DNA from: Elusimicrobiota bacterium
Lineage (GTDB): Bacteria > Elusimicrobiota > Elusimicrobia > F11
DNA length: 64,000 nucleotides
Direction of reading: 5' to 3'
Assembly: GCA_044221725.1 (NCBI GenBank)
Contig: JBGAON010000001.1
Coordinates: 608,001 to 672,000 of the forward strand
Position numbers: made by a program. Shown piece by piece: positions 33,001 to 45,000 of the stretch. Each line of letters begins with the position of its first letter. Positions within the stretch are counted from its first letter, which is position 1.

Positions 33001-36000
33001 CTGGGGCGACGTCGTACAACCTTTACCGAAATCGGGTGACCGGTGTTTCAAAAGCGAACGGTTACAAAATCGCGAATGTTACCGCGCCTTATGTAAACAA
33101 AGGTCTCGTGAATGGGCAGGCGTATTACTTGGTGGTAACCGCGGTGAATCAGGCCGGGGAAAGTTTGGAATCCGCGGAAGTAGCGGCGACCCCGGGCTCG
33201 ACCAGCGCGCCCGTCCCTCCGACGAACATTCGCACAATTCCGGGCGACGGCCAAATTGTTATCAAGTGGGACCCGGTTCCGGGAGCCACCTCTTACAATC
33301 TCTACCGATCGCGCGCATCGAACGTCAACAAACAGACCGGATATCAAATCGAAAATGTCACGAATCCGTCGCTAAACACCGGATTCGCGAACGGTAAACC
33401 GATTTACATGGTCGTTACGGCCGTGAACGAGATGGGCGAAAGCGACGAATCCGTGATGGTTTCCGCGATTCCGTACGCCGGCGGTCCGCGTGGACTCGGA
33501 ATAAACGGTCCCGGGTCTCTCGGCGCGTCGACGAGTTTGGAGACCCGTCGCATTTTCCCGAACCCTTGGCGCAACGATAAGAATGCCGGGAATCCGGTGA
33601 CGTTCGATCAATTAACACCCGGCACATCCATCAGAATCTTTACGCTCGCGGGCCAGTGGGTGAACACGCTCGAAGCCGAAAGCGCCACCACGTGGGATCT
33701 TCGCAACCACGAGGGCGAAAAAGTGGCGTCGGGCGTCTACGTGTGTCTGTTCACAAACAACAATGGAGAAAAGAAACGCAGTCTTTTAACGGTGATCCAA
33801 TGAAAAAAATACTTTCGATATTCATTACTTTTTCGTTCTTCGGAATCGCAGGTGTCGGGTTTGCCGATCCTGGAACCGAAGGGGCAAGCTTTTTAAACAT
33901 CCCGGTTGGCGCGGAACCCGCCGCTCTTGGCAGCGCGTACAGCAGCCTCGCGGAAAACGCATACGCGCCGGTGTGGAACGCGGCCGGTTTGGGGCGCGTC
34001 GAACAAATGCAGCTCGCAGCGCAACACCTGGCGTATTTGGAATCGATTCATTACGAGTTCGCCAGTTTTGTCATGCCGCTAAGAAACAAAAGTGCGTTCG
34101 GCGTGAGCATTCAGTATCTCGGAACCGGCGATATCGCCGCGACGGACGCCAACGGAAATTCGATCGGTGCAACCACGAACCAATACGGCGCTTACAGCGT
34201 CGCCTATGGCCGTTCGTTGTCGGACCGGCTGTCGCTCGGATTGACGGGAAAATTTATTTCCGGGCATCTCGATAATGTCGGCGCGAGCGCTTACGCGCTT
34301 GATTTCGGCAGCATGTACCGCGTTTCGGAGCGATTAAATTTGGCCGCGACAATTCAAAACGTTGGGTCGCGACTGAAGTTCATAAGTCAAAGCGATCCAC
34401 TTCCGCTGGCGGCGCATGTGGGTGGCACGTACGCGTTTTTAAAGAATGTGTCGGCCTCGGCGGAAGCGGTTATTCCGCAGACGAAGCTTGTGTCGTTTCG
34501 TGGCGGCCTCGAATGGAAACCGGCAAATGAGTTGGCGCTGCGCATTGGATATCGCACGGACACGATCAAACAGTTGGGGCCGATCGCCGGACTAACCATG
34601 GGCGTCGGATTCAATCTGCTCGGACAAGAATTGTCGTATGCCTGGGTTCCGCTCGACGAGCTCGGCAATACGCACTATTTCTCTCTATTAATGCGGTTTA
34701 ACGACCACAAAAACCGTTAATCATTCGTCGTCCAGGGATGACGACTCAAGTGTAACCTTCCGTGCCCCTCAATCGTCGTAAGTAATGGACTTCATTACTT
34801 TTGATTCGGAGGGGCACTATGACAGCAGCAACCGTAGCATCAGACAACATCGTTCTTCAAAATAAGATTGAAACCCGCCAAGCACGCATCGGCGTTTTGG
34901 GACTTGGATACGTGGGTTTGCCTTTGGCGGTAGAGTTTGCAAAAACCGGTTTCTCCGTTTCCGGTTTCGAAGTTGATCCGGCCAGGATTCGTACGTTGCT
35001 CGCCGGAGAATCCTATATCGCCGATGTTCCGAGCGAGGATGTTCGCTCGCTCGTCGAGAAAAAGCGATTTGTCGCGACGACCAATTTCACGCAATTGAAT
35101 GCGATGGACATCATCATCATTTGCGTGCCGACGCCGCTCAGCAAAGCGAAAGAACCGGACATTTCTTACATCGCGAAAGCCACCGAAGCCGTCGCGAACG
35201 GACTGCACCGCCAACAACTGATCGTTTTGGAAAGCACCACGTATCCGGGCACAACGCGCGACTTCATGCTGCCGCTGCTCGAGAAGAAAGGTTTTAAGGT
35301 GGGCCGCGACTTCTTCCTCGCATTTTCTCCGGAAAGAATCGACCCGGGAAATCCGCAATTTCATCTCACGAACACGCCAAAAGTGGTGGGCGGCATTACG
35401 CCGGCGTGTGGGGAATTGACCGCTCTTCTGTACCGCCAAGTCGTTGACACCGTTGTTCCCGTCTCATCGTCGGAAGCGGCGGAGATGGTGAAACTTCTTG
35501 AAAACACGTTCCGCGCGGTGAACATCGGACTCGTGAACGAGCTCGCGCTCATTTGTGACAAACTGAAACTAAACGTTTGGGAAGTTATTTCTGCGGCGTC
35601 GACGAAACCCTACGGTTTCATGCCGTTTTATCCGGGCCCCGGGCTCGGCGGGCACTGCATCCCGATCGATCCGCTTTATTTGTCGTGGAAGATGAAGGTG
35701 CTAAATTTCTCAGCGCGCTTTATTGAGCTTGCAGACGAAGTGAATTCGCACATGCCCGACTTCGTTATTCAGAAAACCGCGCTCGCATTGAATCAGCGAA
35801 AAAAAATCGGTGAACGGTTCAAAGATTCTCGTGCTCGGTGTTGCCTACAAAGCGAACGTGAGCGATGTTCGGGAATCTCCGTCGCTCGATGTGATTCATT
35901 TGCTGCAGAATCTCGGAGCCGACGTTTCGTTCCATGACCCGTATGCCAAGTCCATTGAAGTGGGTGGCAAGCAGCTCACCGGTCGCGCGCTTTCGCCTTC

Positions 36001-42000: not shown

Positions 42001-45000
42001 CGGCGTCTTTGGCTCTCGACTCCCGTTGGTCGGACTCGTTTGAAACGGAAGTTACCGGCGGGCGCGCGTTGTACGACACCGCTTCGGCCATCCAACACAA
42101 CGTGACGGAAGACTACGGAAATCTCTATCTCGCGTTTAAACCAGAACTGTGGAGAATATCGTTGAAAGCGTCGGGCGGGAATCTTTCCGACGACAATCAA
42201 CGTTACGGAGGGCAGGCCGGAATTTCACGCGACATAGCGTTCGGTTTCCGTGGCGTTTACCGTTACACGTACGACAATATGAAAGAAATCAGCCCGCTTT
42301 ATTACAGCCCGCAACAATTGCATCAGCATCAATTGGGTTTGCAATTTAAGCCGGCGTTCCGTGTGATCGAACCATCGCTCACGTACATGCCGGGTATCGG
42401 TAAGGAGCGGAACACAAACCAAACATTCGTGCAAGACATCGAAGCGGCGGTGCTCTTCCACATCGGTCGTCGCACGACACTAATGCCGTTCTACGGTCTC
42501 ACCAAAACTCCAACCTACACGCGCGACACGTACAACGTGCAGTTAACCATCCACTTTTAAAAGCTGCGACTGCGGTGCCCCTCACCTCATCCCTCTCCTC
42601 GCCACCGCGAGGAGAGGGAACGCAGCTTTGTTGCATACATTTCTCATACCCATGGCTAAAGAAATCTTACATGGGAGTCAGAAATGGAGAAATATCATGA
42701 AAAATCAAACAGTTTCGCTGTTCCTTTTAACCGTGGTGTTTTCAAATTTCAGTTTTGCCGATGTTCCCTACCCCGGTCCAGACAACCCGCCGCCCACGGC
42801 TCCGACCCCTGGTAGTGGATATCGGTCTCCCGAATCCTATTATCCAAAGGAGAATCCGTTTGAAGGTATCGGTCAGCGCGCCGGGGTGGGGACCAGTCCG
42901 TGCGACAGCCTCTGGGAACAGATCCGTCGTATTCAATCCGACTTAATTTATTTGCACGCTCAGCGAAATCACCTTCTTGCAAATGGGAGCAACGAAGGCG
43001 ACGACTGCATTCAGGGCATTGATAGGCAAATTGCCTCCGATACAACTCGGTTGGATGCACTTGAGGCGCAATTCACTGCGCTTAATTGCCAATAGAGACT
43101 GAGCTCCGGCTTCCGGCTTATTCCACCGTCACGCTTTTTGCGAGGTTGCGGGGTTGGTCGACGTCGCAGCCGCGTAGCACCGCGATGTGGTACGCGAGCA
43201 TTTGCAACGGAATAATTGTCAGTAGTGGCGACAGAAATTCGTGGGTGCGCGGTACCGCGATCACGTGATCCGCTTTGTCGCTAACTTCGGTGTCTATTTC
43301 GTTCGTGATAGCGATCACGCGCCCACCGCGCGCTTTTACTTCCTGAATATTCGAAATCATTTTTTCTTTAATCGATGAATCGGTGGCGATGGCGACCACC
43401 GGCAAGCCTTCTTCGATAAGCGCAATCGGCCCGTGTTTCATTTCGCCGGCCGGATATCCTTCCGCATGGATGTACGAAATTTCCTTTAATTTCAAGGCCC
43501 CTTCCAACGCCACGGGATAATTCAAGTGGCGTCCCAAGAAAAGAAAATCTTTCGCGCGATAATATTCGCGCGCCACGTCCTCAACGATGCCGCTTTTGTC
43601 GAGAAATACTTGAAGCATGTGCGGTAGATAGTCCAGTTCTTTGAGAATCAATCGTTGCTGCGACAACGGAATCGTGTTTCGGCATTCGGCGATGTAAAGT
43701 GACAACAGAAGAAGCGCCGTCAATTGCCCGGTGAACGCTTTCGTGGAAGCCACGCCGATTTCGGGACCACAGTGCGTGTACAGCGTGTTGTCCGCGTCGC
43801 GCGTAACCGTTGAGCCGAGCACGTTGCAAACGGACAACGTCGGAAAACCTTTTCGTTTGCAGTCGCGCAGCGCCGCCAGCGTGTCGGCCGTTTCGCCGGA
43901 TTGCGAAATCGCCGTGATGAGGGTTCCTGGCTCCTTGCTGGCTTTCATGTAGCGAAATTCGCTGGCGATTTCGACGTCGCACGGTATCTTTGCTAACTCT
44001 TCCATCCAAAATCGCGCGACGAGCCCCGCGTGATAAGACGTTCCGCATCCAACCAAGCAAATTTTTGGAATTTCTTCGGCAAGTTTACGAGGGAGTGCTT
44101 CTTCGAGTTTTACCGACGCTTTGTTGAGATCAATCCGACCGCGAAATGTGTTTTGAATCGTCTCGGCCTGCTCGTGGATTTCTTTGAGCATAAAATGCTT
44201 GCGGCCATTTTTCTGGGCCATCTTCGCGTCCCACTTGATTTCTTTGACGGGGCGATTCACGAGGGTTCCTTTTCGGTCGTAAATTTGGAGGCGTTGCTGC
44301 CGAATTTCGGCCATATCGCCATCCTCGAGGAAAATAACGTTGCGCGTGTGATTGAGCAGCGCCGGCACGTCGGAAGCGATCATCATCTCTTTGTTGCCGA
44401 CGCCGATGACGAGAGGCGAATCTTTTCGTACCGCAATGAAGCGATCTCTTTCATCGGCCGAAACCACGCCCAACGCATACGAACCTTTTACGTTCTCAAG
44501 CGCCCTTTTGACAGCTTCAAGAATGTCGCCGTTGTAGAACTCTTCGATGATGTGCGCGAGAACCTCGGTGTCGGTTTGTGACTTGAAGATATGTCCTTTG
44601 CCCGTGAGATCGTGTTTCAAAACGTCATAGTTCTCGATGATGCCGTTATGAACAACGAAAATTTTGCTCTTGCAGCAGGAGTGGGGGTGAGCGTTTTCTT
44701 TGGTCGGGCGTCCATGGGTGGCCCAGCGCGTGTGACCAAGCCCCAACGACCCGTGCAGCGGGCGTTCTTTGATCAGGTTTTCGAGCGCGGCCAATTTTCC
44801 AATGCTTCTCACCAATTGGACTTCGCCACCATTCAAAATCGCCAAGCCGGCCGAATCGTATCCCCGGTATTCCAAACTTTTAAGCCCTTGAACGAGCACA
44901 TCCGACGCTTCTTTATCTCCAATATAACCCACAATTCCGCACATAGACGTTCCTCCTTATATATATAAGGATTGGACAATCCAGCCCGCCGGGGGGTTAC

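Follow-up and report, generated by a model that had tools for sequence, protein, structure and literature searches.

A hyaluronan-synthase-like polymerase joined to Pga-type modification and export proteins in an Elusimicrobiota bacterium, and its probable amino-uronate product

The 64,000-nucleotide stretch of Elusimicrobiota DNA analysed here (the window) carries on its forward strand a gene for a UDP-N-acetylhexosamine 6-dehydrogenase of the TviB/WecC class, split by a frameshift (34819..36145, TIGR03026 in two frames), a polymerase gene that joins a PilZ domain to a GT2 glycosyltransferase (the synthase, 36149..37729), a gene for a membrane-anchored pseudo-deacetylase (gene 2, 37726..38997), whose start overlaps the synthase stop (ATGA), and a gene for a protein uniting TPRs, a CE4 deacetylase and an export barrel (gene 3, 38994..42560). 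Downstream lie a forward-strand ORF of 155 aa with a signal-like segment (42628..43095), of uncertain membership, for which we found neither a Pfam or NCBIfam match nor a paralogue within the genome, and, convergent on the reverse strand, a second copy of glmS (glucosamine-6-phosphate synthase, 43118..44944), probably for precursor supply; another glmS elsewhere in the genome is 57% identical, and glmS is found near the synthase in 6/80 loci. Every operon part named in a preliminary description of this DNA is present in the window, and the second copy of the operon, placed there at C3:850891-859596, was located at C3:850891-859677. The GlmS and GH18 neighbours also exist, although GH18 accompanies the second copy alone and glmS the window copy alone. 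Scans for promoters and terminators did no better than chance (12 vs 11.8; 26 vs 25.1), and an Rfam search gave four tRNAs and nothing else. RNA run X7 has short contigs over the dehydrogenase gene, the synthase gene and gene 3, from which, being contigs, transcription cannot be concluded.

Two further forward-strand genes precede the dehydrogenase. The first (31869..33803) encodes a secreted protein with a jelly-roll N-domain resembling 3-keto-disaccharide hydrolases (Atlas feature matches of 0.96 to PF06439-like clusters), Fn3 repeats and a T9SS-type C-terminal sorting domain, Fn3 and TIGR04183 both scoring above cut-off. This N-domain was found again in 12 ORFs at 11/161 related loci and is joined to the deacetylase gene at two of them (L094 and L197), and the gene order is the same in the same-genus genome G304; the protein is probably an accessory of the polysaccharide system. 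The second (33800..34720, start set at an internal ATG rather than at 33656, as given by the ORF finder) encodes a PorV/PorQ-family barrel (NF033709, 172.6 bits, cut-off 90), a probable shuttle for the secreted protein. A PorV-like gene also lies upstream of the second copy and near the synthase in 4/80 loci, but its link to the system is weaker because the genome has many PorV paralogues.

The synthase consists of an N-terminal PilZ domain (residues 11-105, E 6.8e-11), two TM helices, the GT2 domain, interface and TM helices and, last, a WGTR gating motif. As in processive inner-membrane glycosyltransferases, the D, DxD, D and QxxRW of GT2 are all intact, and GDDR (residues 370-373), QxxRW and WGTR are kept, as had been stated. 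The best PDB matches (E 1.8e-30 to 5.9e-26) are the hyaluronan synthases of Xenopus and of a Chlorella virus, and hyaluronan synthases take all Foldseek ranks from 1 to 13 (AF2 model, pLDDT 91). The NodC model scores above PgaC both for the window copy (175.3 vs 126.3 bits) and for the second copy (158.8 vs 123.9), all far below the cut-offs of 550 (NodC, TIGR04242) and 422 (PgaC, TIGR03937), which the family members leave equally unreached, with 159-206 bits for NodC in five of them and 122-138 for PgaC. In a tblastn search of plasmids with the synthase, HasA (177 bits) came before NodC (148) and PgaC (119) among the best 50 of 431 records, in agreement with the Swiss-Prot ranking given before; identity to HasA is about 30% and to PgaC 22-24%, without the TEDI motif. 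A tree built without chitin synthase, streptococcal HasA, Cps3S, vertebrate or viral HAS sequences places the family outside the Bacillus HasA clade (support 100/100), puts NodC and HasA together, away from the family (100/99), and separates the family from PgaC by a long branch (100/100). These analyses do not establish the family as monophyletic: a branch sets it off from all other sequences in 14% of bootstrap trees, a wider quick tree gives it an SH-aLRT of 88-91, and its base is open in another.

R317 and K326 of the synthase align with R287 and R296 of XlHAS1, which adjoin GlcA in the channel according to an excerpt of PMC11750622. Motif counts were taken from 120 phmmer matches, because the search patterns bias any GDD count made on the 80 + 81 fetched loci: R317 is present in 120/120 of these close homologues and K/R326 in 120/120, with Lys at the R296-equivalent site in 118/120, whereas position 317 is Glu in the two NodC and the two PgaC references. 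Among the best 150 representatives at 50% identity the more distant members often have W or Y at 317, so this one arginine is not a proven uronate marker. The chitin-synthase signatures are QXXEY and EDRXL (excerpt of PMC12653383); the family has Q/ExxRY and DDRSL in their places, Arg replacing Glu and DDR replacing EDR in 120/120.

Gene 2 encodes one predicted N-terminal TM helix, a PgaB-like CE4 domain (E 1.4e-7 against the PgaB model) and a C-terminal jelly-roll-like domain. It had been called a membrane-anchored deacetylase-like protein, and both the anchor and the likeness to CE4 hold, but the site is degenerate (DD to DP, no His pair), and FDDG occurs by pattern in 2/73 homologues, 17 being unmatched; we presume that the protein guides the polymer. 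A complex prediction of synthase residues 104-526 with gene 2 scored 0.00, which counts neither way. Atlas matches to gene 2 of 0.89 offer a lead only. The gene 3 protein has a signal peptide, TPRs, an intact CE4 domain (about residues 567-830), a short TPR and a barrel (914-1188). Its CE4 is of the circularly permuted PgaB type, with the same insertion as PgaB, its best PDB matches are PgaB (E 1e-18), and a TFDD-type motif is present in 46/50 fused homologues. The PgaA-like barrel, formerly a weak match, is now a strong one: the AF2 model (pLDDT 97) has 16 strands, and its fold matches BcsC (Z 26.3), PgaA (26.2) and PelB (24.4) well ahead of the next family (15.6), PgaA being the first Foldseek match and the family barrel profile matching PgaA at E 6e-15, while the PgaB and PgaA likeness of deacetylase and porin sits below curated cut-offs. 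A rough count over inferred inward-facing columns gave a median net lumen charge of +1 (31/49 positive, window copy -4), so the lumen is not clearly basic.

Gating by c-di-GMP, proposed for the system as a whole, appears plausible from sequence for the window synthase: both genome copies keep the PilZ motifs RxxxR and DxSxxG, and the genome has 14 GGDEF matches. It is not universal, however, both motifs being present in 27/74 synthase N-termini and in none of the methanotroph copies. A purpose-built profile detected PilZ in 41/80 and Pfam in 40/74, and both methods miss divergent copies.

A dehydrogenase lies beside both synthase copies, as had been claimed, broken in the window and intact at the second copy and in G304; labelled WbpA-type before, the enzymes fall by their scores in the TviB/WecC (UDP-HexNAc) class. 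The frame break, also noted before, falls at an A8 run (35799-35806), across which a contig of run X1, possibly the source of the window DNA, has identical letters; no listed piece of independent runs spans the site. An assembly error as the sole cause of the break is not supported, given this agreement with X1, though X1 may be the source. WecC/TviB models outscore UDP-glucose models for the window enzyme, the typed neighbour dehydrogenases are all of the UDP-HexNAc class (14/14 and 8/8; UDP-glucose type, 0/22), and the genome has five NDP-sugar dehydrogenases, of which the two of this class sit at the two synthase loci. The linked enzymes fall into four separate branches, one of them TviB-like. 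Many score 429-496 bits with the TviB model NF011729, below its cut-off of 592 in every case (best 496; the genome's intact copy 217); TviB yields UDP-GlcNAcA, according to an excerpt of PMC8760489. For the Elusimicrobiota-type enzymes UDP-ManNAc dehydrogenase models score higher, and the best PDB match is Cap5O. The 161 loci contain no NAD-dependent epimerase, and 2/161 contain a WecB-type epimerase, for which a gene also exists elsewhere in this genome. A dehydrogenase is near the synthase in 13/80 GTDB loci and in 31/81 loci of metagenome and viral collections (23/34 where 3 kb are available on both sides); of 46 GTDB loci with enough flanking sequence on both sides, 36 have none nearby, which counts against a uronate product.

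The synthase is present in 7/11 other genomes of the order, as first reported, but the narrow range given for the gene set was much too low: relatives occur in about a dozen phyla, with envelopes of either type, and include the cultured Holophaga foetida, Solidesulfovibrio alcoholivorans, Methylocaldum and Paenibacillus cellulositrophicus. Gene 2 comes next in 73/80 GTDB loci and gene 3 in 65/80, and a barrel-less form also exists. A GH18 hydrolase of the YdhD/YaaH group (DxDxE or ExDxE in 20/33 by pattern) is near the synthase in 32/80 GTDB loci and in 46/81 metagenome or viral-collection loci (clustering and Pfam), whereas no PgaD-size partner appears among recurring neighbours, for which ORFs of at least 100 aa were clustered. 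The viral collection gave one locus from 89 candidates. Related genomes are not independent samples in these counts. Among the titles and abstract openings listed by searches of open-licence PMC and bioRxiv there was no description of the gene set, which is conserved in many kinds of environmental bacteria and apparently unstudied.

The HAS-like synthase and the BcsC/PgaA/PelB-type barrel support the earlier proposal of a synthase-dependent, outer-membrane-exported system that differs from those for PNAG, Pel, alginate and cellulose. The machine is best described as a HAS-like polymerase joined to Pga-type modification and export parts, and its product is probably a partly de-N-acetylated polymer containing an N-acetylhexosaminuronic acid (probably GlcNAcA). 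From the architecture, folds, motifs and co-occurrence observed we infer the following route. The dehydrogenase would convert UDP-GlcNAc to UDP-GlcNAcA, with GlmS raising the amino-sugar supply; c-di-GMP bound at PilZ, in copies that keep it, would switch on the inner-membrane GT2, which would polymerise and extrude a beta-linked (presumably beta-1,4) chain containing the uronic amino sugar. This chain could be poly-GlcNAcA or an alternation of GlcNAc and GlcNAcA, to which the HAS analogy gives a slight edge. The inactive deacetylase of gene 2 would bind the chain and guide it at the membrane, the CE4 of gene 3 would take off some N-acetyl groups to leave a zwitterionic polymer that the TPR-barrel exports, and GH18 would trim or clear it; barrel-less loci would rely on separate NodB-type deacetylases. 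Against this reading stand the closeness of the gene 3 deacetylase to PgaB, an enzyme of beta-1,6 PNAG, the broken dehydrogenase of the window, linked dehydrogenases that all stay below the TviB cut-off, and, by the rough count, a barrel lumen that is not clearly basic. For the family at large, across its dozen or so phyla and both envelopes, a processively synthesised, glycosaminoglycan-like polymer containing GlcNAcA (poly-GlcNAcA or GlcNAc-GlcNAcA) and partly de-N-acetylated to a zwitterion, undescribed as a synthase product, is a more tentative proposal, to which we give somewhat less than even weight.

A chitin- or chitosan-type homopolymer, one of the products first suggested, does not lead because the synthase departs from the chitin-synthase signature in two of its three motifs. 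The same machine might still make a partly deacetylated beta-1,4 GlcNAc homopolymer, with the dehydrogenase serving another glycan or a minor modification, and several observations favour this: NodC is the best NCBIfam model (no HasA model was in those result lists), GH18 often keeps its motif, the CE4 is predicted from sequence to be active, most GTDB loci have no dehydrogenase, and H322 and K326 of the synthase are, we assume, similar to chitin-synthase positions. Yet QXXEY and EDR fail in all 120 homologues, the Glu317 and GED of NodC are absent, NodC sits with HasA in the tree and not with the family, and HexNAc dehydrogenases have been recruited repeatedly, which leaves such a homopolymer unlikely. 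The hyaluronan-like option was borne out in part, the synthase being HAS-like, with all HAS motifs and two basic channel residues kept; but true hyaluronan (GlcA-GlcNAc), barrel-exported and partly deacetylated, is doubtful because the linked dehydrogenase is never of the UDP-glucose type, whereas has operons carry a UDP-glucose dehydrogenase. With the low identity to HasA and a place outside the Bacillus HasA clade it becomes quite improbable, even allowing for the three other NDP-sugar dehydrogenases of the genome and for the many homologues that JGI names automatically as hyaluronan synthase.

Similarly improbable, in our view, is a divergent PNAG (beta-1,6) system in which another synthase has been substituted, or a machine of that kind making a polymer of beta-1,6 amino-uronate. 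The PgaB-like deacetylase with its shared insertion and the PgaA likeness of the barrel would fit it; the synthase, remote from PgaC in identity and on the tree and lacking TEDI, would not, nor would the lack of a PgaD-size partner among recurring neighbour ORFs of at least 100 aa or a hydrolase that is a GH18 of the YdhD/YaaH group instead of PgaB's own domain. ManNAcA in place of GlcNAcA, or another amino-uronate, with an epimerase from elsewhere in the genome, is possible because the Elusimicrobiota-type enzymes match UDP-ManNAc dehydrogenase models and Cap5O better than TviB, and because a WecB-type gene lies elsewhere in the genome; against the TviB-like scores of many linked dehydrogenases and the lack of an epimerase at 159/161 loci, we give it the least weight.

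Class I hyaluronan synthases (XlHAS1, Chlorella virus HAS, Bacillus HasA) share with the family the fold, GDDR, QxxRW, WGTR gate and basic residues at the R287/R296 sites, but the family has an N-terminal PilZ, ends at the gate, and is linked to a UDP-HexNAc dehydrogenase, deacetylases, GH18 and an outer-membrane barrel. PgaABCD has the permuted CE4 and the TPR-16-stranded barrel in common, whereas the family differs in the clade of its synthase, in showing no PgaD (neighbour ORFs of at least 100 aa), in carrying CE4 inside the TPR-porin, in its extra pseudo-deacetylase and GH18, and in presumably sensing c-di-GMP by PilZ instead of at a PgaC-PgaD interface (excerpt of PMC8892547). NodC and chitin synthases share the CC(P/G) switch-loop region and QxxRW, but have WLSR where the family has the WGTR gate, besides the signature differences above. 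The BcsA-BcsB-BcsC-BcsZ cellulose and Alg8/Alg44 alginate systems are alike in PilZ control, a membrane partner, a TPR-barrel and a linked hydrolase, and the alginate system also pairs a 6-dehydrogenase with its synthase; the family differs by its N-terminal PilZ and amino-sugar enzymes, and in the fold search BcsA comes after HAS. NfrAB (NGR) of E. coli, first found by prediction, likewise combines a GT2 bearing a c-di-GMP domain with a TPR-16-stranded barrel, but in the excerpt of PMC8669472 NfrB depends on WecB and carries an MshEN-like domain at its C-terminus, and no fused deacetylase is described.

The system would extend the short list of synthase-dependent polysaccharide systems by a further class and, if the acidic amino-sugar reading is true, provide biofilm or capsule material of a new type. 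Its carriers live in sludge, sediment, groundwater and gut, and little is known of their matrix chemistry. The residues that set the family apart from NodC and chitin synthases are precisely those presumed to matter, which makes it a natural system for asking how HAS-clade enzymes discriminate between neutral and acidic donors, and the existence of cultured carriers makes the prediction directly testable. Both a zwitterionic polymer resembling hyaluronan and a deacetylase-porin in a single protein would be of interest to glyco-engineers as well. Many of the database entries automatically named hyaluronan synthase may be misnamed.

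The window almost certainly encodes a polysaccharide synthesis and export system, probably one with a new polymer. A nucleotide-sugar dehydrogenase gene, frameshifted (34819-36145), is followed by genes for a 526-aa GT2 synthase (36149-37729), a 423-aa membrane-anchored pseudo-deacetylase (gene 2; 37726-38997) and a 1188-aa protein fusing TPRs, a CE4 deacetylase and a barrel (gene 3; 38994-42560), all on the + strand, while a convergent glmS lies beyond gene 3 on the opposite strand. Successive genes from the synthase to gene 3 overlap by ATGA, which hints at translational coupling. 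The second operon announced in the preliminary description is borne out: at C3:850891-859677, on another contig of the same genome, the same three genes occur at 50%, 26% and 33% identity, followed by a GH18 gene and an intact dehydrogenase on the other strand.

The earlier claims about the synthase were reproduced: its PilZ domain scores E 6.8e-11, hyaluronan synthases (HAS) are its best PDB matches, the two copies score 175 and 159 bits with NodC vs 126 and 124 with PgaC, and it is present in 7 of 11 other genomes of the same order. Its AF2 model (pLDDT 91) comprises PilZ, two helices, a GT-A domain, interface helices and TM helices; in a Foldseek search with this model, 13 HAS structures topped the list, with chitin and cellulose synthases below. 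In our trees HasA plus NodC (100/99) and PgaC (100/100) each stood apart from the synthase and its relatives, a family that may or may not be monophyletic. Around this family lies a large set of uncharacterised HAS-like GT2s (P0242-P0387), in which position 317 is often Trp or Tyr; they may produce other polymers. Both PilZ motifs are intact in the window copy and the second copy, and they are found in 74 of the 89 close homologues having a long N-terminus (shuffled rate, 1%). In the GTDB loci the pair is complete in only 27 of 74, and the methanotroph copies have no PilZ. GGDEF matches number 14 in the genome, two of them inside the window.

As regards export, the last 354 residues of gene 3 fold as TPR plus 16 strands (pLDDT 97), and the barrel matches BcsC (Z 26.3), PgaA (26.2) and PelB (24.4), the next family scoring 15.6; a second structure comparison returned the same three. 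In the middle lies a deacetylase of PgaB type that retains both TFDDG and HxxxxH, and 46 of the 50 fused homologues keep a TFDD-type motif. Gene 2 belongs to the same fold class as this deacetylase, but its site is degenerate in nearly all homologues. Its C-terminal part is probably a jelly-roll domain, judging from an Atlas score of 0.89, which is a lead only, and a PF06439 match (E 0.001) in one homologue. Some longer homologues (at the related loci L041, L057, L060 and L062) have an extra C-terminal domain with a DGLxL motif, reminiscent of a degenerate GH18-type barrel and would echo the two-domain plan of PgaB.

The family extends well beyond this lineage. An even draw from the phylum matched in 12 of 301 genomes, the source genome counted, and a GTDB scan gave at least 566 confirmed relatives among 597 candidates. 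The best 80 of these, to which all our GTDB locus counts refer, carry the database labels Elusimicrobiota, Omnitrophota, Nitrospirota, Nitrospinota, Acidobacteriota, Verrucomicrobiota and kin, Planctomycetota, Gammaproteobacteria (methanotrophs), Thermodesulfobacteriota, Binatota, Gemmatimonadota and Actinomycetota. In 73 of the 80 the synthase is followed by gene 2 (70 of the 75 with room for it), and 65 have gene 3 (50 of the 57 with enough space), its deacetylase being fused in 49; GH18 occurs in 32, a dehydrogenase in 13 and glmS in 6. Another scan, which started from distant members, added 80 metagenome loci (the best 80 of 529) and one viral-collection locus; in these 81, many of them on short contigs, gene 2 was found in 74, GH18 in 46, a dehydrogenase in 31 and the barrel in 10. 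An active-deacetylase motif lies somewhere in the locus in 50 of the 80 GTDB and 40 of the 81 metagenome/viral loci. All these counts include kin and are not independent samples. A Paenibacillus plasmid record holds a deacetylase, dehydrogenase, PilZ-like synthase, gene 2 and GH18, with no barrel. Full-length synthases of the family include one from Holophaga foetida (L057:9923-11521) and Paenibacillus WP_152403772.1. The viral-collection contig, viral by collection label alone, carries a dehydrogenase, synthase, deacetylase and two jelly-roll-domain genes (L198:6547-12341).

Regarding the polymer, the synthase motif residues and the neighbouring dehydrogenases point to an acidic amino sugar, and our preferred reading, held with moderate confidence, is that it contains GlcNAcA. 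According to the part of PMC11750622 consulted, R287 and R296 of XlHAS1 adjoin GlcA-2 and their Ala mutants yield short products; in the alignment (R, Y+1, F+5, R+9) they correspond to R317 and K326 of the window synthase. R317 is kept in 120 of 120 phmmer matches, and 117 of 120 Bacillus HasA-like proteins have it as well, while the position is Glu in both NodC and both PgaC references. The position varies among distant relatives, which counts against the uronate reading: Arg stands there in 41 of the leading 50 representatives, but in only 22 and 24 of the two following sets of fifty. In CvHAS a Lys and an Arg flank the UDP-GlcA carboxylate (PMC12987647, in the section available); both are likewise kept in the family, and, since NodC and PgaC keep them too, have no discriminating value. 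The linked dehydrogenases score better with TviB or WecC than with UDP-glucose models in 14 of 14 cases from the GTDB side (13 loci plus the second copy) and in 8 of 8 further cases (7 of the 31 dehydrogenase-bearing loci of the second scan, plus Paenibacillus); none of those typed reaches the TviB cut-off. Since all 22 thus disfavour a UDP-glucose substrate, hyaluronan is highly improbable. The type found in the source genome is closer to UDP-ManNAc dehydrogenases and Cap5O, which would fit another amino-uronate instead of GlcNAcA, a reading to which we give only a slim chance. By BLAST, all 31 dehydrogenases of the second-scan loci are nearer to typed ones than to the genome's three others; the typed enzymes fall on four branches, one TviB-like, which suggests that dehydrogenases have been recruited repeatedly to synthase loci. 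Against the GlcNAcA reading, no dehydrogenase lies nearby in 36 of the 46 GTDB loci with room for one.

The GH18 of the loci is closest to YdhD/YaaH-type enzymes; enzymes of this family need an N-acetyl group where they cut, and the bonds they cleave are usually beta-1,4. A chitin-like polymer is unlikely: the defining motifs of chitin synthases are QXXEY and EDRXL, the Glu of EDR being said to bind the donor (PMC12653383, as far as its text was accessible), whereas the family has Q/ExxRY and DDRSL in their place. The PgaB-like deacetylase of gene 3 fits a beta-1,6 linkage, a point against the preferred reading; a PNAG-like polymer we regard as very improbable. Beta-helix lyase-like genes near the synthase in 4 of the 80 GTDB loci would fit a uronate polymer, thin as this indication is. 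The barrel lumen has no clear basic bias, which counts against the uronate reading.

The frame break mentioned in the preliminary description is present, and is now located in the dehydrogenase, at an A8 run (35799-35806). It recurs in a contig of sequencing run X1, possibly the source of this DNA, and is absent from the intact dehydrogenase of G304, a genome of the same genus; it therefore probably represents either a lesion of recent date or a slippage tract. The run could serve in slippage or phase variation. The second copy's dehydrogenase could make up for the product of the frameshifted enzyme.

The system works like Pga, Bcs, Pel and Alg, as these are described in the consulted part of the review PMC8892547, and resembles NfrAB in outline (PMC8669472, likewise in part). 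However, on the features tested for each, it belongs neither to the Pga nor to the NodC/chitin synthase nor to the has operons, and the bacterial chitin synthases covered in the available part of PMC5122149 come from other taxa and other genes. Hyaluronan, NodC, Desulfovibrio and Paenibacillus all go unmentioned in the main text of an EPS operon survey (PMC7112194), whose supplements might list some loci as divergent pga; in the literature outside subscription papers we found no description of the gene set.

Two further genes lie upstream of the operon. One is PorV-like; the other (31869-33803) codes for a secreted jelly-roll/Fn3 protein that carries a T9SS-type sorting domain and is probably an accessory that binds or cuts the polymer. 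G304 has the same gene order, as does another genome, G078, except that the dehydrogenase is missing there. The jelly-roll domain is found at 11 of the 161 related loci, fused to the deacetylase gene in two. At the second copy the cargo protein carries DMFA2_C and DUF4082 domains. Some 20 PorV-like genes are spread over many places in the genome (G000), L001:4601-8783 among them, and several of its proteins end in a T9SS-type domain.

Other features of the window include a third polysaccharide-type locus (5646-12080, +), with a 397-aa family-less ORF, a 1337-aa protein whose DUF2334 domain is deacetylase-like, and a 419-aa processive-type GT2 whose scores, 181 bits with PgaC/IcaA and 115 with BcsA, are both below cut-offs. 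Just upstream are two neighbouring GGDEF genes, one with a GAF domain (1125-3508, +). A low-GC islet between two tRNA genes (28934-30214) holds three short ORFs, two resembling a toxin-antitoxin-type pair and one an HTH protein. At 46643-51274 (-), a 1543-aa hybrid histidine kinase with a long poly-HAMP array is encoded, adjoined by a second kinase and a response regulator.
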